Assembly: GCA_029838215.1 (NCBI GenBank)
Contig: JALGVI010000007.1
Coordinates: 1-50,648 of the forward strand
DNA length: 50,648 nt
Origin: Candidatus Helarchaeota archaeon
GTDB lineage: Archaea; Asgardarchaeota; Lokiarchaeia; Helarchaeales; RDOG01
Direction: 5' to 3'
Made by a program: the position numbers and the translations under genes. The notes below the pieces were generated by a model that saw only the letters and a list, made by a program, of their open reading frames with translations, made no database searches and was not told where the DNA came from. This document shows positions 10,447-40,783 of the stretch, piece after piece; the first letter of the stretch is position 1; every line of letters begins with the position of its first letter.

Positions 10447-11826
10447 ATGTCGTTGAAAAAAAGAAAGCAAGTATTGATCAAAGAATTGATTCGTAAGAAT
10501 GTACTTCATGATCGTCGTTTAATTCGAGCCTTCGAAGAAATTCCAATGGAAAAATTCATTCCTGACCATCTTTTGGACTGGGATCGGATTTATCTCGACA
10601 TGCCACAACTATTTTACTTTAGAGATCCATTAAACCGCCGGACGATTAGTGCTCCTCACATGATATCGATCATGGTTGAAAGCCTGAACCTACAACCCGG
10701 CAATAATCTTCTCATACTGGGGTCAAAAAGCGGTTATATAAGTGCGATTTGCAGTCGACTCTGTCCTGAAGGGGAGATTTTCATCTTAGAAGCGATAAAA
10801 TCCATCAAGGAATCCACGGAGGCACTACTTCAAAAAATGGGATTGGATAAAAACATCACGATTATAGGTCCCATAAATCCTCTATTTGGCTTAAAGGAAC
10901 AAGCACCATGGCAGAAGATTTTAGTTACCGGACAAGTTGAAAAAGGTGATTTAGAATTCATTCTTTATCAATTGGATGAAAATGGCGGCGTTTTGTTTGC
11001 TCCCATTGGGAACATGTTCCAGCAAAAATTCACTCAAATAATTCGTGATGGAGACGAATTTTATTTTAATGAGATTGGTGATGTTGTCTTCGGTCCTTTA
11101 GATGTGGAACCGTCTTTTGATGATTCTGTTGATAATCTTGAAATGCCCGCTACAGAACCTCCAAGGTTCCAACCCATTGCGTTAAAAATTGATTTAGGAA
11201 TGGCAGAAGAGAAAATGCAGGAAATCATTCAGCGTTACTTTTATCAACAAAAGCAAAAGGTCGATGTCAGTGATGATGAGATTATTGAAACTGCAATGGA
11301 GCTTGCCGAAAAGCATGACGGGACGATCCACCTAATAACAATAGCTGATTACTTAAACGTAGATGAAAAACAGGTTGAAAAAGTCCTAAAGCAATCGAAG
11401 ATCGGTTCTATCCAAACGTTCACTTCCAGTTTAATAACTGATAAAATTTTCGTCTTGAACAAAGAAGATTATAAGAAAAAATTCCAATTACTATTAGACA
11501 CGTTAAAACCCGTCTTGGAAATTGTCTTGAACATGAAAAACGTCCATGATTCTGATAAACTCCTGAAATTCTTGAGTGAAATCGATGAAAAATTACAAAA
11601 CCTTAGGGAAATGACGATCGATGTCAAGATGAAAAAAATCAATCACTTGATAACTGAAATTAGAAGTAAGTGCTTGACAACAAAAAAATTGGAAGACCGG
11701 GTGGCATCAGATCCAAAAATTCTCAATGCCATCGATAAAGTGACCCTTCAATTGTTAGAAAAGATCGAATTATTACACGACACGCTTCTAGAACGGATTA
11801 ACAGTTTAGAAATTTTCCTATCTTAA
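10447..11826 (+). CDS. Protein-L-isoaspartate O-methyltransferase-like domain fused to a C-terminal winged-helix plus helical region
   Basis: AFEEIPMEKFIP, TISAPHM, LQPG..LILGSKSGY, GGVLFAPIG, VVFGPL; about 235 extra C-terminal residues. Confidence 0.8.
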   Translation: MSLKKRKQVLIKELIRKNVLHDRRLIRAFEEIPMEKFIPDHLLDWDRIYLDMPQLFYFRDPLNRRTISAPHMISIMVESLNLQPGNNLLILGSKSGYISAICSRLCPEGEIFILEAIKSIKESTEALLQKMGLDKNITIIGPINPLFGLKEQAPWQKILVTGQVEKGDLEFILYQLDENGGVLFAPIGNMFQQKFTQIIRDGDEFYFNEIGDVVFGPLDVEPSFDDSVDNLEMPATEPPRFQPIALKIDLGMAEEKMQEIIQRYFYQQKQKVDVSDDEIIETAMELAEKHDGTIHLITIADYLNVDEKQVEKVLKQSKIGSIQTFTSSLITDKIFVLNKEDYKKKFQLLLDTLKPVLEIVLNMKNVHDSDKLLKFLSEIDEKLQNLREMTIDVKMKKINHLITEIRSKCLTTKKLEDRVASDPKILNAIDKVTLQLLEKIELLHDTLLERINSLEIFLS

Positions 11827-14800
11827 TTTTTTTCTTTCATTTTTGTTTTAGTTTCATTTATTTTTTCTTTTATTTGTTGATATAGTTTTAAGGCTTCTTT
11901 TCCTTTTGATTGGAGATGATTTTTCTTGTCAATGAGACCGAAAGTATATAATGTCTTGAGGATCGAGCTCGTTTCTTTCTCTGAAATCTTTACTTCCTTT
12001 GAGATTTCCTTTATCGTGAAATATCCCCTGCCAATCGCTTCGAGCACTCTTGCCCCATGTAATCCATGAATCTCTTGAAGGTTATCAAGAGACCAGCGAG
12101 CGGTAATTTGAAGAGCCTTTGGAATTGTTTCTGCCAATGGGAAGTACTGAGATAGAATTTTTCCTGCGAGTTTGAACCGTTCTATGTCTCCATTCCAATC
12201 TTTTAAATCCTCGGTATAGCATAATTCAAACTCATTTACGTATCCATTCAATTGGTTGCGTATCACGTGCAAGTCTTCGTCAGCCATGATTGCTGCCGTA
12301 ACGTGATTTCCATGTGAAAAAATAATCTTGCTATCAAAATGGCTGATGCTTTTTAATGGCTTGTCGCTTTTTGTGATTTCACTAACGATTGAGCTTATAC
12401 CAAGCAAGGCACTCGTAACAAGAGACGAATCCACTTCTCTCTCACCACCAACACGCCGATCGAAAATCGCGGCACCTGTCTTCTTGTAAAACAAGTAAAT
12501 ATGCTTTATTTTCCGTTCCCAATGTCGTTCCCTTACTTTCTTGCGAATGCGATATGCGAAAAGTAGTCCAAGTAGAGTCACGCCAATTCCAACGAGCAAG
12601 AAAATGACCAAGAAAAGCGGACTTAACGGCGGCGTGTTGACAACGAGTGTTACCGTTTCCTGTGCTAGCAGATCCCCGTTTTGATTCCGCACGTAGACAT
12701 TTACTTCATATTGACCTGGAAGCATGCCAAACGTATTAATCGGTAAGATGAAATGACCATTGACGTATTGTAACGAACCGGAGCCATGAATCCATTCATA
12801 AGTCGCCAAATTATCTACACCTAACGACGTGCCGTGGTATCTATCGAAGAAATCAAACGTGAACTCCACCGTTTCACCGACAATGCCGACCTGAACATTA
12901 CCATCCGATATTGATGTATCAATGAAATCTGTCCACGGTAAAGTGCGGAGAATCACCTGCAAGCTACTATCCAAATAATGCTCTTTACTTGCCGTAATCA
13001 AAACATTATATGATTTCGTTTGACTGCTTGCTGTAAAATTAATGCGATACATGCCATTACTGATGTCAACATAATTAACTTGAGAATATCCTAAGAATGA
13101 AATTGTTGCATTGCTTAGCAGTTGATCAAATTCCGTATCGTTGAAAACGATGTAAAGATCCGCATCATTCTCGCCATAAGGGATTTCAATGATCGTGGTG
13201 TTTTGAGAACAAGCTTTCAATTCAGTAAAGGTATCACGTAGGGGAACCGGAACCAAGATTTGTTGGGTATCGAAGCGAAATCTGGAAGCGGTTATATTTA
13301 GTAAATCCGTGCTGGAAAGCCCGGTCGTGTTAACTATCAATTTATATTTATTGTTGTTTGATTCATTAAATGTCACGGCACCTATGATGGAAGCATTCAC
13401 ATCAATCGTTGCATCAGGAATTGGATCTCCAACTAATGTTTCATAATTTAATAAAATCGTTGCATTTCCACCATATGGGACGGAATTGATGGGATCGTGA
13501 GTTAGAATGGTCTCAAAGCGAAATATGATTATTAAATTTAAGGAACAATTCGAATAATATTGACTGGTAGAATTGATTTCTAACGTGTAGTTTTTGTCAT
13601 TCTGAAAGGTAAGTTCTGTTGTATCCAGAACTATGTCATATTCTCCAGTACCCTGGTCTGTAAGATTTAGAATACCCGTGCTCCAATTTAACTGAACATT
13701 TAAACCTGAAATGAGCTGATTTGTATTCGTATCATTTGCTCGCACGCGAATCAACAGCAAATCGCCATATTTCATTTCCGTGGTATCATCGATACGGGCA
13801 TCGAATGGCTCACGTAGGGAAATGCTGGATTGATGAACGATATTCATGACGGTAGAATTTTGACCTGATTCCGTTCCATTCGTCCACTGAACCATCACCT
13901 GATATGAACCACCAGTCGTATTTGTGCTTCCGATCGTGATATTTGGAAAAATTACCCATCCATTACTAGAACCTATTGATTGTCCGCTCCACCAAGTGGT
14001 ACCATTTGGTGCTTGAATCGTTAGATTTGCCATACTTCCCGCGAGATCAGTTTTCGTCTGAGTCTTCGTCCCTATTCTGGCGATCACTCTTGATTTATTG
14101 GTAACAAAGAATTCCGTGCTATTTGACCACGTGCTTCCCGTAAAAACTTGGGTTTGGATTTCTTGAACATAATTGTTGGAATCTGCCCTGATGATCCAAT
14201 ATCCATCAGGATATTCTGTCATGTTCGTTGTTGGGATGGAAGCATATCCGTCAAAATGCCCTCCTTGTATGTCACTAATACGATTGATTAAAGGATATAT
14301 TGGTTCAGCAACATACGTGAGGTTCCAATCTCTTGGCGTGGAAAAATTGAACGTGTGATTTCCAAAATGGCTCGGCACGCCAACATAATAATAAAATTCC
14401 CAACACGTCGAATTATCCTGAACCTCATAGTTCATTCCTATTTTTGAAGGGTCCATTGCATGAAGGCTTGAACCAGTCGTGTTCGCAAATAGATTCATGT
14501 CTACTTTAAAAGTCAGGTCAATTGGGAGAACAGGATCTGTTGATGAAATGGTTGGCGTGAAGCTGAAGTTTCCTTCGACTCTTTGATTAATTGAGTCATA
14601 TTCTATTGATCCAAGCTGAGTAACAGAACCTGAATTTTCCCCTATATCATCAACTAGAATGTCATTCATGGTTAGAGAAACATTAGATGGTTTTACCTTG
14701 CTTTTAAGATAGAGCTGAAAATTGTCGATCCAGATTTCTGGATTTGGTTCTGAACCATAGCTGATATCTGCAGAATGAGTCAATCCAATTTTGAGATTTA

Positions 14801-16286
14801 AATTCACGTGCGTTCCGTTATTTGGAAGATTGGCTGTTGAAATGGGAACAATTCCCGTATTATACCACGTATCTTTCTGTTCAATCTCGTGAAAACTTAT
14901 TAGATGGACTTTCTTCCATGCATCTTCAAGTCCGATATCTTCAAAACTTGACGTGATAAAATCGCCATAAACATCTCTCGTGTCATCAATGAAAAGAACG
15001 GATTGATATGACGAGTTCAGCCAATTTAGAGTTCTATTAATGAGATCCGTGCGCTCCTGATCCGCCAAGACATCACTAATGTCAAATCCGAAGAACATTG
15101 TTGCATTTTCATGGGTACTTGAAGACCAATTTATGGTAGAACGTTGTCGACTCGATTGAACCACGTCATATTTGAGAGGCACGTCTGCATCGGGGCTGGG
15201 ATCGTCAAAGTAACACGGCGATGCTAATGAGTATAAAGCATAATCATTAATTCCATCAAAAATTCCACCGGCAATACCATCAAGGTTTTGACCACTTGAC
15301 AATTGTCCGCTATGGTTTGCATGAAGGTACCTATAAAGCCAAGTACTCTCGGGAGGATTTTGGAACTCATAGGAAATTCCCTGTCCCGTCAAAAGCAATT
15401 TACCCTTGTCATTCAGGTAATTTGTTATGAGCATTCTGTCACTTGAGGTGAGTGTGTTTGTAGTTGTCCAACCTGTTGCCCAAACGACAATATCATATTT
15501 TTGCAGGTATGAAAGGTCGGGAACACCTCTATCCGTGTAATTATAGTAAAAATAGATTTTATTACTCGGACTTTGAAGGTCCGTTTGATCTACGGCGACA
15601 CTAATCTTGAATGCGCCTGCCCCTTCCAAGGACCAACTTGAATTAACCTTGTAATCAAATTGCAATCCCGCCCAATTTACTGATCCCCTCTCGATGGAAA
15701 TGTTTTGCTCGAATGAAGCATCTGTCGTCGTATAATAAACAGATCGCGAATTTCCCTGATCCCAATTGTTTAGTTTGATGTGGATACCTCTTGAATTATT
15801 CACGCCTTCCCCATCCTCAATGGCATAATTCCATCCCGGATGAGATATAGAGGAAAAGTCTGAAGCGTGAGCCGTCCAATTCCCCGTGGACTCGAAATCA
15901 ACATCCTTTATCCAACAGCGATTTTCATATATGTCATTCAAGTACATTTCGATCCTGTTTCCATCCCAGGTTGAAGGTAAAGAAACGTAAGCCGACATGT
16001 TTTGAATTTCGCCGGATGTTTCATTATAGTAAAGCATGATTTCTTGATCTGAATTCGTTCGATTTGCATGTTCATAAATCGTGAGAGGAGGTGCAATATT
16101 GTTGCTTTCTTTTAATAGCAAAGGGAAAGGGTCTGCACCTATCGTGGAAGGATTATACGTTGTCGCTAAAAAGAAGGGAATCATTGGCATGAATGATAAA
16201 AATAATGAAAATAAAATTAAAGAACCCAGAAATAAACTTTTTATTCTAAAATCATCTTTTCGGAAATTTGTCATAAATCTCGACAC
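11823..16286 (-). CDS. Giant single-pass surface protein: glycosylated beta-rich ectodomain, TM, cytoplasmic longin-like domain, winged helix
   Basis: N-terminal hydrophobic helix, many N-x-S/T sequons, Ig-like repeats, TM LFLVIFLLVGIGVTLLGLLFAY, longin-like IYLFYKKTGAAIF...DSSLVTSALLGI...FELCY, wHTH TIKEISKEVKISEKETSSILKTLYTFGLID. Alternative ATG start at 16274 with AGGTG. Confidence 0.8.
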   Translation of the reverse strand: MSRFMTNFRKDDFRIKSLFLGSLILFSLFLSFMPMIPFFLATTYNPSTIGADPFPLLLKESNNIAPPLTIYEHANRTNSDQEIMLYYNETSGEIQNMSAYVSLPSTWDGNRIEMYLNDIYENRCWIKDVDFESTGNWTAHASDFSSISHPGWNYAIEDGEGVNNSRGIHIKLNNWDQGNSRSVYYTTTDASFEQNISIERGSVNWAGLQFDYKVNSSWSLEGAGAFKISVAVDQTDLQSPSNKIYFYYNYTDRGVPDLSYLQKYDIVVWATGWTTTNTLTSSDRMLITNYLNDKGKLLLTGQGISYEFQNPPESTWLYRYLHANHSGQLSSGQNLDGIAGGIFDGINDYALYSLASPCYFDDPSPDADVPLKYDVVQSSRQRSTINWSSSTHENATMFFGFDISDVLADQERTDLINRTLNWLNSSYQSVLFIDDTRDVYGDFITSSFEDIGLEDAWKKVHLISFHEIEQKDTWYNTGIVPISTANLPNNGTHVNLNLKIGLTHSADISYGSEPNPEIWIDNFQLYLKSKVKPSNVSLTMNDILVDDIGENSGSVTQLGSIEYDSINQRVEGNFSFTPTISSTDPVLPIDLTFKVDMNLFANTTGSSLHAMDPSKIGMNYEVQDNSTCWEFYYYVGVPSHFGNHTFNFSTPRDWNLTYVAEPIYPLINRISDIQGGHFDGYASIPTTNMTEYPDGYWIIRADSNNYVQEIQTQVFTGSTWSNSTEFFVTNKSRVIARIGTKTQTKTDLAGSMANLTIQAPNGTTWWSGQSIGSSNGWVIFPNITIGSTNTTGGSYQVMVQWTNGTESGQNSTVMNIVHQSSISLREPFDARIDDTTEMKYGDLLLIRVRANDTNTNQLISGLNVQLNWSTGILNLTDQGTGEYDIVLDTTELTFQNDKNYTLEINSTSQYYSNCSLNLIIIFRFETILTHDPINSVPYGGNATILLNYETLVGDPIPDATIDVNASIIGAVTFNESNNNKYKLIVNTTGLSSTDLLNITASRFRFDTQQILVPVPLRDTFTELKACSQNTTIIEIPYGENDADLYIVFNDTEFDQLLSNATISFLGYSQVNYVDISNGMYRINFTASSQTKSYNVLITASKEHYLDSSLQVILRTLPWTDFIDTSISDGNVQVGIVGETVEFTFDFFDRYHGTSLGVDNLATYEWIHGSGSLQYVNGHFILPINTFGMLPGQYEVNVYVRNQNGDLLAQETVTLVVNTPPLSPLFLVIFLLVGIGVTLLGLLFAYRIRKKVRERHWERKIKHIYLFYKKTGAAIFDRRVGGEREVDSSLVTSALLGISSIVSEITKSDKPLKSISHFDSKIIFSHGNHVTAAIMADEDLHVIRNQLNGYVNEFELCYTEDLKDWNGDIERFKLAGKILSQYFPLAETIPKALQITARWSLDNLQEIHGLHGARVLEAIGRGYFTIKEISKEVKISEKETSSILKTLYTFGLIDKKNHLQSKGKEALKLYQQIKEKINETKTKMKEKN

Positions 16287-16853: not shown

Positions 16854-17252
16854 GTGATGGAAATGTATCAACGAGTTTATTACTTAAGTGCGACATATTT
16901 GGAAATCGAAGAGCTTTTAAAAGCTTACTTGAGGGAGAACGAATGGACTTATACCATTGAATTCCAGACTTTCAAGGCTTTTCGTGATAATTTGAAGATT
17001 TCCATCAAAATCGAAGAACAAATAAACATGACGACCGTCCAAATTTCCGGCGGAAGTTCCGACTACACTATTGAACAAGAGCAAGAGATTATTGAAATTA
17101 TTGCTGATATTGGAGATTATTTAGAAGGATTCTTCATCTCGGATACCAGTTCACCGCAAACTCAAGCGGTGAAAAATGGCTGTCCGATATGCGGAAAGGC
17201 ACTTCGTCGGGGAGTTATTTATTGTCCTAATTGTGGGGCTTTAGTCAAGTAG
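16854..17252 (+). CDS. Hypothetical protein with C-terminal zinc ribbon
   Basis: CPICGK-x7-YCPNCG at the C-terminus; 12-nt convergent overlap with the next gene. Confidence 0.75.
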   Translation: MMEMYQRVYYLSATYLEIEELLKAYLRENEWTYTIEFQTFKAFRDNLKISIKIEEQINMTTVQISGGSSDYTIEQEQEIIEIIADIGDYLEGFFISDTSSPQTQAVKNGCPICGKALRRGVIYCPNCGALVK

Positions 17253-20200
17253 CTCGAATGGTTTTTTCTTTTTCTTGATTTTTTTGGGGTATATCCAATA
17301 ATAGAAGAAAATAGCGAATATTACAATTCCCACGATAACGGGATAACCGATCCAAAGGATTGAAAAGAAAAGAAAATTTCCCGTTGCGTTGTAAAGAATG
17401 GAACTAACGCCGTGAAGTGCAGTAATAAGGGAGATGAAAACTGAAACAAAACCGACTACTGACTTTAATCGGTTATAAATCACTTGGAGAAGGGATTTTT
17501 CGGCATCACCCAACTCACCGCCATCGATCATTTCAAGGTCATCTTTATTCAGGACTTTTCTCATTTCTTGATATGATATTCGACCCATGCCAAAGACAAT
17601 CTCGTTTGTATTGCTGTCAATCTTGATATTGTCCATGTTTGAAGTGCCTAAAATCCTGAAAAGACGGGATTTGAGGGTGGAACGCTTCATTCCCATGCGA
17701 TTTGCCAGTTGTTGAATTGGAATACGTGGTGTTTCGTATACTTTTTCCATGTAGATGAGATTCTTCTTAATGATTTCGTCTTCGAGAAGGATCTTCGTCC
17801 GTTTCAGCACGTCTTCTAATTCATTTATGTTCCATTCTCTCAAAATAACAATGCAGGAGTCCCGAAAGTTGGGAATCTTCAGGTTCTTTTCTGCATTTGA
17901 TATGTGAGACTTAATATCACCGTCCATGTTTTTTAGAACATTCAGCAAGTTTTTATACGTGGCCTTTAGCGTGGCTTGAGCCTCGTCAAGATTACCATTC
18001 TCCAGGAGGTTCGCCTGTTCGAGTTCTATTTCATTGATTAGATTATAAAAATCGTCTTTATGGCGTTCTATTTTCTTTTTTAACTCGATTTTTAACTCTT
18101 CTTCGAGTATGCCTACAAATTTTTGCTCAAACCGTTCTCGCTGTTGTTTTATGTCATATTTTATCGTTGCGATTTCTTCGTTAAATTTACCTTGTAAGTC
18201 TGCGATTATTCTTAAAAATTTCTTAATATTAAGGTCATCTTCCGCTTCTTGAATGAAATTTCGAAGTTTTTCTTCGTGCATGTTGATTTTTTCATCATGT
18301 GAGCCATAAATTTCTTGAAGATAAGAGCGAACCTCATCGAGGTTATGAAAAGAATCAATTTGTTTTAAGATTTTCTCATTAATGTCTTCGAGTTGTGCGT
18401 TAATCTCCAGTAATGCTCCCTTAATGAGATTATCAAATTTCCTTCTATAATCCAGAATTTTTGTAATCAAGGCGACTTCATTCTTTATTTGTGATTTTCG
18501 TTGAGTCCATTTTTGGATTAAGCCTGAATTATACGGGTTCTTTAGTTGTTTTGGGTAATTTCGCTTCAAGAACCCATCGTTTTCTTCGATATTCGCCAAA
18601 ATTTCTTTAGTTTTCGTTTTAATTTCTTCTTTATTGTCATCAAGAAGGTAACTTTCACAGTAATTCAAAAATAAGTTTTTTAAACGTTCAAATTCCTGTT
18701 CTTTCAAGTATTTTTCAATGGTCTTTTCAAACTCTAACTGTTTCAAATTGGGCACGGTAAGAGGGATGATCTCGTCAGCATTTACAAATTCCGCTGATAT
18801 CCTTGCAGACAAAATCATTTGCTCGAGCCGTTTTTTAACGGAGCTCCGACTCAGACCGATCAGTGTTGCTAATTCTTGTATCTTAATTCGTCCGCCCCGT
18901 GCTTCATTTGATTTCTCTAAAATTAATTTTTGTAAGACTGTATCAATGAGATGGTCTTTTTTATTTCGGAGAGAACTCTCCATGAATTTTTCATAGGTCT
19001 TCCATCGGTTCACGGGAACCATCGTGATTTCTGTAAAGTTCTTGAACTCTTGAGATTCTTGGTTCAAGAAGTCGAAAATTGCTCTATTTTCTTTTTTCAT
19101 TTCGGATTTTAGGTATGAATATCGTTCCTTTAGAAGGTGGCAAAGGTTTTTTTCTGGAGTTATCACTTCGAGACGGGAAAGATCTTCCAATTGATCTAAA
19201 GCACGATTCAATTTCTTGATTTTTGAATCGACGAGAGCATCAAATTCTGATTTTTTGGACTTTTCTTTAAGAGTCATTATTTTTTCTTCAGTTTCTTTCT
19301 TGACATCTTCCAGTTCTATTCTCATTTGGTCCATCAAATCTGTCCAAAGAAATGGGATGTCTCCTGCAACGATTTCAAAATCATCCAATATTTTCCCCGT
19401 GTCGTGTATGTATTCGTCAAGAAAGAGGTTGGTTTCCGTGATGAAATCCAGGGCTCGCAGGATTGCCAGATTCAATTCTTCGTTGTCTTCGATTTTTTTG
19501 ATATTTTCCAATCGGTCATGAAAACTTGCTTTTCGTTGGTCCATCAATTTCAGGATTTCATCACGTTTATATATTTTAGATCGCATGTCCTCCAGACGTC
19601 TGGCTGCTGTTGACTGTTTTTGTCTCCATTGCGTCGCCAGAAATTCATCAAATGCACGACTCTTATCTTCCAAATCTTGGTTTAAAGTGATGATTCCTTT
19701 TGCTAACGATGAATCATCCGTGAGGATGACATTCTTCAATAAAGAGCCTTTATTTGTTATTTTATACAATTCGGTGATTTTATTATTGATTTCCTGTGCC
19801 ACTTTTCGAACATTTTCCTCAATTTCGTTAGATCTTCCCAAAAAAATATCTCTTTTCGTGCCGAGTTCGTGTTTTGCACAGGATCTTTGAAAATCTGATA
19901 GCAATGTTTCAATTTGATTATTGAATCTATCCGTATTGTCATTTATGAACTCAACAAGTTTTTCTAATTCATTGTATGCCTTGATGATCTTCTCCCGATC
20001 CTTAATGAGACCATCCAAGTCATTTCTGACGTTTTGAAGTTCTTTTTTCGATTCCGAAAAATTCTTTTTCCATTCTTTTAATGATTCAAGTGATCTCTTG
20101 ATATCAATCAGAAAAAAGCGTTCTTTGAATGAATTGATTGTTTTTTCCTGTTCGGCAAGTTTCACGAGTGCTTGGTCATAATGCTTATCAAGATTACCAC

Positions 20201-21722
20201 GCGCCAATTCGACTTCATCGGCTTCCAATAGAATTTTGATTGATTCTTGAAATTCTTGGATTATCATGGGTAAAAGCGTGATATATTGGTCAATTAATGC
20301 CTCGAACCTGACCAAATCTTGCTTTTCTTCAACGATAGTATTATATGGAAATTCCTTTTTGCGCACTATGATGTTATCGGGTAAGATATAAACTCGGAGA
20401 ACCTGTGTCTTCCTCAGGCGTTTTTTTGATTCTTCAATGCTGCCAATTATGAAGTGTTGCTCGATTAATTTTGAAATGACTTTTTTAACCCTGACTTGCT
20501 TATCTGGAATTCTCCGAAACGTTTTGGCAAAATCAGTCAAGTCAATTTTCATCATTCTTTTATTCAATATATAATCCAGCGTTTTTTTAGCAATTCGCTG
20601 ATCATCGCTGGGAAGGTGACTGAGGTAAGTGTTAAATAGCTCTTTATATTTCACTATATCAACGGAAAACCACTTATACTTGGCTTGCATTTCTCTAACA
20701 AGCCTGAGAACCAACTTTTCGGTCACAAAAAATTCATCACAAAGCGTCCTCACGTACACTTCTTTTTGAACGTGAACGTGTTGGAGAAGACCATCTTCAA
20801 CTTCATCTATGAGTGATGGGAGAAGGAGAAACATTATGGCATCTGCTTGGGCGGTTTGTATTAAATCCGAACGAGCCTCTGTCGGATTTTGATTAAATCC
20901 TCCGTCAGGCTTGAATTTTTCTGATAAAAATTTTATGACTTTTCCTTTATTCAACTTGCGAATTAATTGATAGCCACTAAAAACTGATGTCACAAAAAAT
21001 GTATCCGTAATGTTGCTTTCGTCTGCTTTCTTTCCGAAACCTCCATCCGATCCTTGAAATGATGATATGAATGAAAGAACTAACTCGTCATCGATTACTT
21101 CATGGGGATTTAAAAGCCTGTACGTCAAAAGCAAGTAATACCTATCAATACTGCTTTTTTCCATCCTTTTCAAGAGTATCCTTGACATTCTTTTAGTATC
21201 GAGTAAATCCATTTGATCAAGAAGATAGAGGCTTGCCACGGCAAAGAATGTTGATTTGTACGAAGAATGAGCACCGCAAAGACAATCCTTATTGTTACAG
21301 TGTGAAAAAAGACCATCTGCTTTCTGGTTTTCCATTATGAATCGTAAAGTTTGCTTGCACTCGTCTTCATTAAGCTGATGCCCTAAAAGTTTCAGTCCTG
21401 CAATTGCAAAAAAAGTACTCCACGTGTCAGGATTCCAATTATGTAATGACGAAAATCCTCCTATCGGTGCGCGAAATCGGAAAATAAATTCGCTAATCTT
21501 CTTTTTCAATATCCTGCCAAAAGAATTCATCTCTCCAAGGAAACTCAGTCCCAAGAGAGCGTAAAACGTGCGCTCCAAATCACCAAACCCGTGATTCGAT
21601 TCTAGTTGACCTCGAATATATTTAGTGATCTTAACCCTGAAAGATTTTCCAAGCATGGTATTGAATATTTTTTGATCCTGTTTACTGACACGCCAGCAAG
21701 GAAGCACGAGTTCCGCGCACAT
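17241..21722 (-). CDS. 1493-aa protein: prenyltransferase-beta-like (alpha/alpha)6 repeats, PCI-like winged helices, long coiled coils, two C-terminal TM helices
   Basis: Repeats of F+..Q..DGGF...D...TFFA+..L.LL; PCI-like segments GGRIKIQELATLIGLSRSSVKKRLEQMILSARISAEF and YETPRIPIQQLANRMGM...IKIDSNTNEIVF; hydrophobic hairpin then KKIKKKKK. Start may be 21656. Confidence 0.75.
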   Translation of the reverse strand: MCAELVLPCWRVSKQDQKIFNTMLGKSFRVKITKYIRGQLESNHGFGDLERTFYALLGLSFLGEMNSFGRILKKKISEFIFRFRAPIGGFSSLHNWNPDTWSTFFAIAGLKLLGHQLNEDECKQTLRFIMENQKADGLFSHCNNKDCLCGAHSSYKSTFFAVASLYLLDQMDLLDTKRMSRILLKRMEKSSIDRYYLLLTYRLLNPHEVIDDELVLSFISSFQGSDGGFGKKADESNITDTFFVTSVFSGYQLIRKLNKGKVIKFLSEKFKPDGGFNQNPTEARSDLIQTAQADAIMFLLLPSLIDEVEDGLLQHVHVQKEVYVRTLCDEFFVTEKLVLRLVREMQAKYKWFSVDIVKYKELFNTYLSHLPSDDQRIAKKTLDYILNKRMMKIDLTDFAKTFRRIPDKQVRVKKVISKLIEQHFIIGSIEESKKRLRKTQVLRVYILPDNIIVRKKEFPYNTIVEEKQDLVRFEALIDQYITLLPMIIQEFQESIKILLEADEVELARGNLDKHYDQALVKLAEQEKTINSFKERFFLIDIKRSLESLKEWKKNFSESKKELQNVRNDLDGLIKDREKIIKAYNELEKLVEFINDNTDRFNNQIETLLSDFQRSCAKHELGTKRDIFLGRSNEIEENVRKVAQEINNKITELYKITNKGSLLKNVILTDDSSLAKGIITLNQDLEDKSRAFDEFLATQWRQKQSTAARRLEDMRSKIYKRDEILKLMDQRKASFHDRLENIKKIEDNEELNLAILRALDFITETNLFLDEYIHDTGKILDDFEIVAGDIPFLWTDLMDQMRIELEDVKKETEEKIMTLKEKSKKSEFDALVDSKIKKLNRALDQLEDLSRLEVITPEKNLCHLLKERYSYLKSEMKKENRAIFDFLNQESQEFKNFTEITMVPVNRWKTYEKFMESSLRNKKDHLIDTVLQKLILEKSNEARGGRIKIQELATLIGLSRSSVKKRLEQMILSARISAEFVNADEIIPLTVPNLKQLEFEKTIEKYLKEQEFERLKNLFLNYCESYLLDDNKEEIKTKTKEILANIEENDGFLKRNYPKQLKNPYNSGLIQKWTQRKSQIKNEVALITKILDYRRKFDNLIKGALLEINAQLEDINEKILKQIDSFHNLDEVRSYLQEIYGSHDEKINMHEEKLRNFIQEAEDDLNIKKFLRIIADLQGKFNEEIATIKYDIKQQRERFEQKFVGILEEELKIELKKKIERHKDDFYNLINEIELEQANLLENGNLDEAQATLKATYKNLLNVLKNMDGDIKSHISNAEKNLKIPNFRDSCIVILREWNINELEDVLKRTKILLEDEIIKKNLIYMEKVYETPRIPIQQLANRMGMKRSTLKSRLFRILGTSNMDNIKIDSNTNEIVFGMGRISYQEMRKVLNKDDLEMIDGGELGDAEKSLLQVIYNRLKSVVGFVSVFISLITALHGVSSILYNATGNFLFFSILWIGYPVIVGIVIFAIFFYYWIYPKKIKKKKKPFELLD

Positions 21723-39283: not shown

Positions 39284-39536
39284 CACGGGTTAATCATCAG
39301 TCTCTCATTAAATTCCAAACAAAAAGTGACGTTTTTTTTCGTAAATTTGATCGTCAAAAAATTTTATAATTTACATGAAAATATGAAAATTCGTGCAATA
39401 AGATAAGAAAATTCACGTAAAAATCAGCTTTACTTTTTTATACCAAATTTCTCATGGAATAGCACTCATATATAACTTTGAAATAGTATTTAAAGCTTAA
39501 AAGAACTATACATCTAAAGAATTGAGGTATCCCTTA

Positions 39537-39908
39537 ATGGAATTCACATTCACTGACAAGGCACGAGAGCACATTGAAAAGAAATTGAGCGACCGACAAG
39601 AGCAAGGTATGTTCATTTTTACGATGTTACATCGCGGATGATCAGGAGCGTATAAAGAAATCATGATAGAAGTTGCACCGAAATCGCACGTCAGAAACAT
39701 CCAACTATTCCAAGAAGTTGGAGTTTTTAAGAGCGGAAACGGCGGTGGAGAACTTCCCATTTATATCGATCCTGAATCACGAAGGCATCTAGAAAGTCGA
39801 AAGGAAATCAAGATTGATGCTTATGGATGGTCGTTCATGAAGTATCTAACGATTCCTGATGCATACTTGCCTTATTACGGTTCAAGCGGCTCTTGTTCAA
39901 TGTGCTAA
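39537..39908 (+). CDS. HesB/IscA-like selenoprotein (Sec at codon 35, TGA 39639-39641)
   Basis: GAGGT then ATG 39537; MEFTFTDKAREHIEKKL...HRG-TGA-SGAY continues in frame into the 39663-39908 ORF; the motif matches HesB-family G-C-S-G..Y; SECIS-like hairpin 17 nt after the stop. Confidence 0.82.
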
Positions 39909-39917
39909 TCTTTCCAA

Positions 39918-39996
39918 AAGGAATGGTTTATGACCCCGATTCAAAAAGTTTGAGGAATCCGGGCGAAACCCAGGACATGCACCTGGCTCATTCCTT
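39918..39996 (+). promoter_or_regulatory. Eukaryote-like SECIS element (cis-acting mRNA kink-turn hairpin)
   Basis: GGUU/AACC stem, UAU bulge, tandem G.A/A.G (AUGA 39930-39933; GA 39965-39966), CCCGAUUC/GAAUCCGGG upper stem, apical loop starting AAAAA; outer AAGGAAU/AUUCCUU helix. Confidence 0.75.
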
Positions 39997-40030: not shown

Positions 40031-40249
40031 ATGATCTCGGATTTGTACATCCCAAAAGTAACAGATCCAAAAAAGTGCGGCTATTGCGCGGCATGTGAGA
40101 AAACCTGCCCCGAAAAAGCCATCAAAATTGAAAATAATACATTTCATCTTGATGTTGAAAAGTGCTTGGGCAGGAAAAATGAATTTTGCGCTGCTTGTGT
40201 GGAAATTTGCCAACGCAAGATCCTCTCAATGGTTGAGGCACCCGTCTAA
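40031..40249 (+). CDS. 2x[4Fe-4S]-type ferredoxin
   Basis: CGYCAACEKTCP and CLG-x5-CAACVEICQ. Confidence 0.85.
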   Translation: MISDLYIPKVTDPKKCGYCAACEKTCPEKAIKIENNTFHLDVEKCLGRKNEFCAACVEICQRKILSMVEAPV

Positions 40250-40260
40250 AACATCTAAAT

Positions 40261-40632
40261 CTATTTTTCGATTATTTCGGGATAAATCAAAATATGTTTG
40301 TAATCTTCTGCCCACTGTTCTAGTGTCTTGAAAATCACGCTGAGAGCAGCTCCCTTGTCTGTTAATCGGTATTCCACGCGTGGAGGAATTTCATTGAATG
40401 CCTTGCGTTCAATAATACCCATTATGTCCAACTCCTTCAAGCGCTCTGAGAGCGTTTTGGGAGATATATCAAACCTTTTATAGATTTGATTATAGCGAAG
40501 TGGTTTATCTCGATTTTCGTAGAATAAGAAAATAATGGGCATCATGTGCTTTCGACCCAATAATTCAATCACGCAAGTCGCATCTCGGCATTGCTCTAAT
40601 TCTTCTTCCCTACTTAATTTTCTTGTCATCAT
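40261..40632 (-). CDS. HxlR-family transcriptional regulator
   Basis: LLGRKH, LRYNQI, ISPKTLSERLKEL, PPRVEYRLTDKG; start at 40632 with GGTGA. Confidence 0.9.
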   Translation of the reverse strand: MMTRKLSREEELEQCRDATCVIELLGRKHMMPIIFLFYENRDKPLRYNQIYKRFDISPKTLSERLKELDIMGIIERKAFNEIPPRVEYRLTDKGAALSVIFKTLEQWAEDYKHILIYPEIIEK

Positions 40633-40783
40633 CGTTTCACCTATATAAAATACATGCTTCAAATTTTGAAGTAACTTCAAACTTTTTAGCTTACTTCAGT
40701 TAATGAATAAGCTTTTATCAAATTTACTGATGTTATTTCAGTTCCAAGAATCATAATGAAGCGGTCGAAGAACCAAGCACGGA

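Follow-up and report, generated by a model that had tools for sequence, protein, structure and literature searches.

The 50,648-nucleotide (nt) stretch of DNA analysed here ("the window") is contig JALGVI010000007.1 of assembly GCA_029838215.1, from Candidatus Helarchaeota archaeon, read on the forward strand from position 1 to 50,648. Towards its 3' end lies a reading frame that begins at ATG 39537-39539, runs for 34 codons to an in-frame TGA (39639-39641, codon 35), continues for 88 sense codons and ends at TAA 39906-39908, the last position of the gene as given here therefore taking in the stop codon. Read through the TGA, the frame encodes 123 residues, with H-R-G-U-S-G-A-Y (U, selenocysteine) around the TGA and SGSCSMC at the C-terminus. 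An initial annotation, made from the letters and a list of open reading frames (ORFs), had described the ribosome-binding site, the start codon, the TGA with its 34 preceding and 88 following codons and both of these motifs, all of which are confirmed in the sequence and its translation. It had also proposed a selenoprotein gene divided by the ORF caller at an in-frame UGA, and the list made with translation table 11 does divide the gene, into ORFs at 39522-39641 (39 codons) and 39663-39908 (81 codons). The evidence presented below makes it very probable that 39537-39908 is a single gene, that UGA35 is read as selenocysteine (Sec) under the direction of a type I selenocysteine insertion sequence (SECIS) element, and that the product has a fold remotely related to IscA/HesB.

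The sequence on both sides of the TGA behaves as one coding region. By our own arithmetic from the GC content of the window (0.387), the chance of 88 codons staying open is about 0.003. Comparison of the gene with its closest relative, at locus L019, gives 9 synonymous and 15 non-synonymous differences in the part before the TGA, and 25 synonymous and 34 non-synonymous differences in the part after it. Synonymous differences are thus frequent on either side, indicating that both parts evolve as coding sequence. A read error at the TGA had been raised as a concern in the initial annotation; the codon is covered by contigs from two public sequencing runs belonging to two studies (a sediment metagenome and a hydrothermal-vent metagenome, one of which may be the source sample of the window), with zero differing letters. 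TGA terminates 17 of the 39 long ORFs in the window, so it has not been globally reassigned. The features of the locus, and the gene for tRNA-Sec found elsewhere in the genome, are listed in Table 1.

Table 1. Features of the selenoprotein locus, its neighbours and the tRNA-Sec gene, with the evidence for each
Feature	Position	Strand	Evidence
Shine-Dalgarno-like GAGGT, 8 nt 5' of the ATG	39524..39528	+	direct reading; putative function
Probable selenoprotein coding sequence, 123 codons and TAA, distant IscA/HesB fold	39537..39908	+	translation, 41 homologous genes, AlphaFold2 model, hhalign
UGA codon 35, almost certainly read as Sec	39639..39641	+	TGA or Cys in the homologue column; contigs from two runs agree
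Cys120 codon, in the low-confidence C-terminal tail	39894..39896	+	invariant in alignment A1
Y-shaped structure in the 3' untranslated region	39918..39996	+	minimum free energy and centroid folds agree, z = -2.1
Type I eukaryote-like (Loki-type) SECIS	39930..39966	+	folding, covariation, covariance model R1 score, published features
72-residue 2x[4Fe-4S] ferredoxin, downstream neighbour	40031..40249	+	Pfam Fer4 families
HxlR-family transcription regulator, convergent with the ferredoxin gene	40261..40680	-	Pfam HxlR, 71.8 bits
tRNA-Sec	L001:1501-1612 (C165:48883-48994 in the window's own genome)		Rfam; also seen with L003 and L013

Homologues and the selenocysteine column

Evidence that the UGA encodes Sec came from the homologues of the gene. 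A HMMER search of 1.8 billion representatives returned seven relatives, and a word-based search with the single protein returned only the window's own 81-residue fragment. Two of the relatives, P0004 and P0007, are full-length and carry Trp at the critical column, and their DNA matches the protein only if TGA is translated as Trp. P0003 and P0008 together make up one gene, which has been divided at the point where the window gene is divided, and P0006 is a C-terminal fragment whose upstream frame runs through a TGA at the same column. We next scanned 400 genomes of the phylum with a six-sequence profile that was allowed to read through stop codons, and obtained matches in 32 genomes, spread over 18 of the 85 genera; nearly all of the matching genes contain one in-frame TGA, and five contain no stop. 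After re-alignment, 35 homologous genes, drawn from Asgard genomes and metagenomes, have TGA in the Sec column, where six others have Cys, in line with what the initial annotation had anticipated for a Sec codon. The residue that alternates with TGA is always Cys and never Trp or Gly. The Asgard affiliation of these loci rests on the type of their SECIS elements, on the "Promethearchaeota archaeon" names that the homologues carry in the database and on actin, the window's genome encoding one that scores 441 bits. On this comparative evidence, the in-frame UGA almost certainly encodes Sec.

The Sec column is the sole near-invariant reactive position in the 38-sequence alignment A2. In the close subfamily (alignment A1), the only other conserved reactive residue is Cys120, which is invariant, while Cys123, the second Cys of the CxxC tail, is unique to the window sequence. 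The suggestion in the initial annotation of a Sec/Cys/Cys set must accordingly be reduced to Sec35 and Cys120, the two residues that recur among close homologues. The motif of these homologues is U-[SG]-G-[AGTV], of which the window's U-S-G-A is one form.

If the TGA were instead a true stop, the locus would encode a 34-residue peptide and an 81-residue protein, or would be a pseudogene or an assembly error. Gene callers have split the locus in just this way in public data (P0001, P0003, P0008), and TGA is a common stop codon in the genome. A true stop does not readily account for TGA in the same column of 35 genes from 18 genera with Cys in six others, for coding conservation on either side of it, for its presence in both runs, or for a SECIS element that follows the Sec forms only (see below); nor is there an RBS-like sequence before the internal ATG at 39663. 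We therefore regard a true stop, pseudogene or assembly error as very improbable. Annotation pipelines for genomes of this kind should join the two fragments.

The wider Asgard family consists of five subfamilies. The first is the window type, with G-U-[SG]-G and a C-terminal Cys. Members of the second are about 100 residues long and carry U-C-G, or in one gene U-U; the third is of the U-S-G-x-[FY]-C type, the fourth of the U-T-M-x-x-C type, and the fifth is Cys-only, of the A-C-A-G-S-Y type. Some of the Cys-form paralogues carry a single Cys. The gene with U-U (L035:1495-1806, minus strand) has two adjacent in-frame TGAs (K-G-U-U-G) where others have U-C, and 31 nt 3' of its stop is a SECIS with a perfect AUGA, 9-bp stem and GA. 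Tandem arrays of two or three paralogues occur at six loci (L025, L034, L039, L045, L048 and L050); in one example, a U-T-M type, a Cys-only type and a U-S-G-x-F-C type lie together in that order. In these arrays, every Sec gene has a SECIS of its own after it, and the Cys gene has none. The window's own genome also contains a Cys-form paralogue (L052:1714-2100, minus strand, equivalent to C82:13213-13599), with G-S-C-G-P-M-T-K-G-G-W and, at the C-terminus, L-G-A-C. No SECIS follows it, and its neighbours are a RimK-like ATP-grasp gene on one side and a glutamate dehydrogenase gene on the other.

SECIS element and selenocysteine pathway

The SECIS of Lokiarchaeota has been defined as AUGA followed by a 9-bp stem, a loop of 11 nt with adenines at its start and AG at its end, and GA (Mariotti 2016, PMC4989117), a form later named a type I eSECIS-like structure (Huang et al., PMC11227280). 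An element of this kind begins 21 nt after the UAA stop codon of the window gene. It consists, in order, of AUGA (39930-39933), CCCCGAUUC, the 12-nt loop AAAAAGUUUGAG, GAAUCCGGG, a bulged C and GA (39965-39966). The loop is A-rich and ends in AG. The stem formed by CCCCGAUUC and GAAUCCGGG has nine positions, eight of which are paired and one of which is a C-C mismatch; in an alternative register, the C-C mismatch adjoins the core in place of the bulged C before the GA. The element thus fits the Loki-type SECIS except for the C-C mismatch, the bulged C and the 12-nt loop.

The position of the element is conserved. Using a simple scanner together with the covariance model R1, a SECIS was found directly after the stop codon in 33 of 35 Sec forms; with the same two methods, none was found after any of the six Cys forms, and R1 gave zero matches at five control loci encoding canonical IscA. 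The scanner background is low, with an element of such quality in a fraction of 0.006 of the 60-nt segments of the whole genome to which the window belongs, and R1 ranks the window SECIS best in that genome, at 32.1 bits. In a 26-element alignment, the AUGA and the AAA of the loop are invariant, and there are compensatory changes in all eight stem pairs. Stem cells are paired in 94.7% of cases across the 26 elements, compared with 60% after shuffling and 42-57% when the partner strand is slid, a percentage that is partly built in since the elements were chosen by a scanner that requires a stem. The independent evidence for the SECIS is its position, its absence after the Cys forms and the diversity of the stem sequences. 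At Rfam gathering thresholds nothing was found in the window, and no curated family reached threshold on the SECIS. The expectation in the initial annotation of a 3' SECIS in a Sec-using Loki-type archaeon is nevertheless borne out by the element itself and by its distribution among the homologues. The family provides some 30 independent covarying type I SECIS elements with which to model the archaeal-to-eukaryotic transition in Sec decoding.

The SECIS hairpin is predicted to be one arm of a larger Y-shaped structure, in which an outer stem (GGAAUG.../...CAUUCC) encloses both the SECIS hairpin and a small hairpin, CCAGG/CCUGG (39970-39986). The same architecture, formed by different sequences, is predicted at the three other closest loci (L019:646-726, L017:1034-1108 and L021:3223-3294), and across the four the outer stems are 5-8 bp long (GGAAUG/CAUUCC, CUGGAC/GUCCAG and CUGGAU/AUCCAG). 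The z-scores range from -1.8 to -2.5 and come from single-sequence folds of the four closest homologues; an alignment of the four long 3' untranslated regions with MAFFT, folded with RNAalifold, misaligned the region after the SECIS. Two Sec forms, at L024:1690-1770 and L031:1800-1880 (both plus strand), have no canonical AUGA/GA core. Both have a long hairpin within a Y structure right after the stop, with an A-rich loop that ends in AG at L024 and in UAG at L031, and these hairpins may be variant SECIS cores.

The genome to which the window belongs also encodes the means to decode UGA as Sec. Contig C165 carries a compact Sec cluster in which EFSec (282 bits) is followed by SepSecS (425 bits) and, 39 nt further downstream, by tRNA-Sec, whose score of 52.9 bits exceeds the Rfam cut-off. 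The tRNA-Sec has a 9-bp acceptor stem, the anticodon UCA and a 25-nt intron just after the anticodon; because of this intron it was missed by ARAGORN, and it was detected with Rfam. A PSTK-like gene scores 160 bits against a curated cut-off of 290.5 bits, so PSTK is only probable. SelD itself contains an in-frame TGA (F-H-G-U-A-C-K), VhuD has two Sec codons, and VhuU (D-C-U-L-S-C), which served as a positive control, is followed by a SECIS with AUGA, a 9-bp stem, a 12-nt loop and GA. The machinery named in the initial annotation is therefore present as regards tRNA-Sec, SepSecS, EFSec and SelD, with PSTK left as a probable assignment. UGA35 would be decoded by this archaeal/eukaryotic-type pathway of tRNA-Sec(UCA), PSTK-like kinase, SepSecS, EFSec and Sec-containing SelD, and the type I SECIS downstream of the UAA would direct the recoding.

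A further alternative, in which read-through inserts Trp, Cys or Gly at the UGA owing to near-cognate decoding or a local change of code, would explain why some pipelines translate homologues with TGA as Trp (P0002, P0004, P0007), but it is hard to reconcile with the many window ORFs that end in TGA, with a Sec pathway (PSTK included only as probable) and further Sec genes (SelD, VhuD, VhuU) in the genome, with the alternation of TGA with Cys alone, or with a covarying SECIS that accompanies only the TGA forms, and it appears highly unlikely.

Two observations were made in passing on SECIS elements elsewhere in the genome. In vhuU (C49:~15700-15865, plus strand; D-C-U-L-S-C-A-A-H), the TGA stop is also the UGA of the SECIS AUGA core, so that the recoded UGA of the mRNA stands about 80 nt upstream of a terminating UGA that lies inside the recoding element. 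The second-best genome match of R1 (31.1 bits) lies outside the window, at C111 41845-41896 (plus strand). It follows an ORF, within the region 41,34x-41,896 (plus strand), that contains two consecutive in-frame TGAs (...P-D-A-G-C-U-U-D-P-F-E...) and then about 34 further sense codons; the TGA at which this ORF finally stops belongs to the AUGA of the SECIS. This ORF is a candidate for another unreported selenoprotein.

Relation to IscA/HesB and to known selenoproteins

The initial annotation had linked the protein to HesB/IscA, and both fold and profile comparisons agree with this, at a remote level. The only Pfam match is to PF01521 (Fe-S_biosyn), at 22 bits (E 1.9e-4), below the gathering cut-off of 26.3; a scan of the genome with PF01521 scores the window gene at 18.6 bits. 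PF01521 is matched by 10 of the 38 family members (E < 0.01), and no other Pfam family recurs. An AlphaFold2 model built on alignment A2 has a predicted local distance difference test score of 87.9, falling to 64 and then 49 in the last 20 residues. In the model, Sec35 sits at the tip of a beta-hairpin, in the turn between two long strands. The top 10 matches of this model in the PDB by Foldseek all have the IscA/SufA/HesB fold, and with VIA-align nine chains of this fold align over 90-97 residues at Z 5.5-7.9, followed by the next chain at Z 2.3. When profiles A1 and A2 were searched against PDB sequences, nothing meaningful was returned. Alignment by hhalign to four canonical IscA proteins from other Asgard genomes gave E 8.1e-5 and a probability of 61%, and placed the first cluster ligand, the Cys of GGC(A/S)G, opposite the Sec column; Sec is thus in the position that the initial annotation had assigned to it by analogy with the Cys of G-C-x-G. 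Together, the fold matches and the profile alignment indicate that the protein is distantly related to A-type carriers and carries its Sec at one of their ligand positions.

Three Cys are invariant in A-type carriers: one belongs to G-C-x-G and the other two to a C-terminal C-x-C. The comparison with IscA, SufA and HesB (PF01521; PDB 1x0g, 1s98, 1r94 and 2d2a; Z 7.4-7.9 over 90-97 residues) shows the same fold, with selenium replacing sulfur at the first ligand. The window protein further resembles these carriers in having a flexible Cys-bearing tail and a ferredoxin gene alongside. It differs from them in the tail itself, as had been recognized in the initial annotation: the C-x-C pair is absent, and of the C-S-M-C found in its place only the first Cys is conserved in close homologues. 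Many subfamilies have no C-terminal Cys at all.

Among known selenoproteins, the closest in kind is the HesB-like selenoprotein of Methanococcales and some bacteria, which has been labelled with 75Se in Methanococcus maripaludis (PMC11097638). The two proteins have in common small size, occurrence in archaea, a distant relationship to IscA/HesB and a single Sec, located in the N-terminal half. However, the motif of that family (NCBIfam TIGR01911) is U-x-G-P (PMC13188914), whereas the window has U-S-G-A; its SECIS is of the methanogen GAA_A type, whereas the window family is decoded via a eukaryote-like AUGA/GA element; and the window family, unlike the methanococcal one, has an extra C-terminal tail with a conserved Cys. 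TIGR01911 (cut-off 66.35 bits) found nothing at E <= 1 among six close members of the window family and left the window gene unmatched when the genome was scanned, while scoring above its cut-off in one control genome; one of 38 family members is matched, at E 0.054. Membership of the window protein in TIGR01911 was rejected on the absence of a match and the differing motif, and the term "HesB-like", as used in the initial annotation, cannot be taken to mean this family.

Of the curated selenoprotein models, the NCBIfam entry NF041239 (CC/Se motif) scores highest on the wider Asgard family and matches 18 of the 38 members. The U-C-G subfamily aligns over the full length of the model at 25-37.5 bits, the best being L031 at 37.5, with a cut-off of 40. 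No family member reaches 40 bits, the score of the window protein being 12.3, and a scan of the window's genome with the model yielded no match; membership of the window protein in NF041239 was therefore also rejected. The known members of NF041239 are bacterial, with a prediction in Moorella thermoacetica (PMC13188914, Table 1), in contrast to the Asgard window family. Its motif has been given as CxxU (PMC13188914), and the position of its Sec may thus differ from that in the Asgard family.

Selenoproteins with type I eSECIS-like elements that have been reported in Asgard archaea are VhuU/FrhA, HdrA-VhuD, Prx-like, SelD, AhpF-N and DsbA-like proteins (PMC4989117, PMC11227280). The window gene shares with these genes its mode of decoding and the design of its SECIS (AUGA, about 9 bp, an A-rich loop ending in AG, and GA, just after the stop), and its family is not among the seven Asgard families of the published surveys. 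The survey of Huang et al. (PMC11227280), which covered over 400 Asgard genomes but used only already known selenoprotein families as queries, reported seven families. A 2026 review (PMC13188914) lists eleven archaeal families, HesB-like among them, and does not include HesB-like among its Asgard families. Full-text literature searches found no report of the window selenoprotein family, and its database entries are fragments, translations with TGA as Trp, or "hypothetical protein". We therefore regard it as a new family of Asgard selenoproteins, built on an IscA-like fold and decoded by a mechanism that was known before. The Asgard selenoproteome thereby gains a family, the seven published ones having all been found by homology to known families (PMC11227280, PMC13188914).

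Proposed function and gene neighbourhood

The four closest loci (window, L019, L017 and L021) share a gene for a ferredoxin of 72-74 residues directly downstream, with a convergent gene for an HxlR regulator. HxlR was considered as a divergent, co-regulated partner and rejected; its gene is convergent with that of the ferredoxin, and the two therefore share no promoter. A link to the upstream cdh (CODH/ACS) genes was likewise rejected, since L017 and L021 lack this adjacency.

In the window's own genome, which is 94% complete, no gene other than the window gene gives a PF01521-like match. Among 201 genomes sampled from the phylum, 10 encode canonical PF01521 proteins; these 10 all belong to three families in which the selenoprotein was not found, and the counts are drawn from related genomes that are not independent. 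In the lineage of the window, for which the search returned no canonical IscA, Sec occupies the ligand position of an iron-sulfur (Fe-S) assembly fold.

Our tentative proposal, which we hold as quite possible, is that the protein is a homodimeric A-type-like carrier of an Fe-S cluster or iron. Each chain would contribute Sec35 and Cys120 to holding the cluster or iron, which would then be passed on, possibly to the neighbouring ferredoxin as client or electron partner. The protein would in this way be a selenium-containing stand-in for the A-type carriers that the lineage appears to lack. The carrier proposal is favoured by the fold, the Sec at a ligand position, the flexible Cys tail, the pairing with ferredoxin and the apparent lack of a canonical carrier.

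Nearly as probable is that the same selenoprotein is a selenol/thiol oxidoreductase, in which Sec35 would be the attacking residue and form a selenenyl-sulfide with Cys120, or in other subfamilies with an adjacent Cys or a Cys at +5; recycling would be by ferredoxin or thioredoxin, with the IscA-like fold serving as a mere scaffold. The HxlR family includes thiol-based redox sensors, and the HxlR neighbour of the window gene would suit such a role, as would the thioredoxin gene that follows the homologue in L038. The partner Cys shifts among subfamilies (U-C, U-x4-C, C-terminal) in the manner of resolving cysteines, and the subfamily nearest to NF041239 ("CC/Se motif") has an adjacent U-C. In general, selenoproteins of prokaryotes are for the most part redox proteins that carry a U/C pair (review PMC13188914). 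On the other hand, the fold matches Fe-S assembly proteins only, with no thioredoxin-like fold, and Sec is aligned with a cluster-ligand Cys. Moreover, among the Cys paralogues are single-Cys forms that have no possible resolving partner, and a thioredoxin neighbour is seen in one locus only.

Several observations weigh against our interpretation at its different levels. As to decoding, the case for Sec is a comparative one, and the window SECIS is slightly imperfect, its mismatch and bulge being accompanied by a score below those of many relatives. As to the fold, homology to IscA is remote, given a Pfam score of 22 bits against 26.3, an hhalign probability of 61%, template modelling scores (TM-scores) of 0.45-0.59 and empty PDB sequence searches. 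As to the carrier function, there are two conserved reactive residues, compared with the three invariant Cys of A-type carriers, and across the wider family the second Cys moves (U-C, U-x4-C or C-terminal) or is missing. To judge from these alignments, a moving second Cys suits redox resolving cysteines better than a fixed cluster site. The gene neighbours of distant homologues also vary (PP-loop ATPase, ferritin, thioredoxin, B12-binding protein and a pyruvate:ferredoxin oxidoreductase subunit), and the complementarity with canonical IscA may merely track Sec-using lineages.

A broader scenario, which we consider unlikely, is that Lokiarchaeia-type Asgards have swapped the canonical A-type carrier for an expanded set of IscA-fold selenoproteins, with several subfamilies and tandem Sec-Cys-Sec arrays, whose Sec would ligate or transfer an Fe-S or Fe-Se cluster. 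Whether as carrier or as oxidoreductase, the window protein is a testable candidate for a role of selenium in Fe-S or redox handling, alongside the enigmatic HesB-like selenoprotein of methanogens.

Elsewhere in the window, two long minus-strand ORFs of 1487 and 1493 residues, at 11823-16286 and 17241-21722, are each preceded by an ORF of 156 residues, in what looks like a duplicated gene pair.

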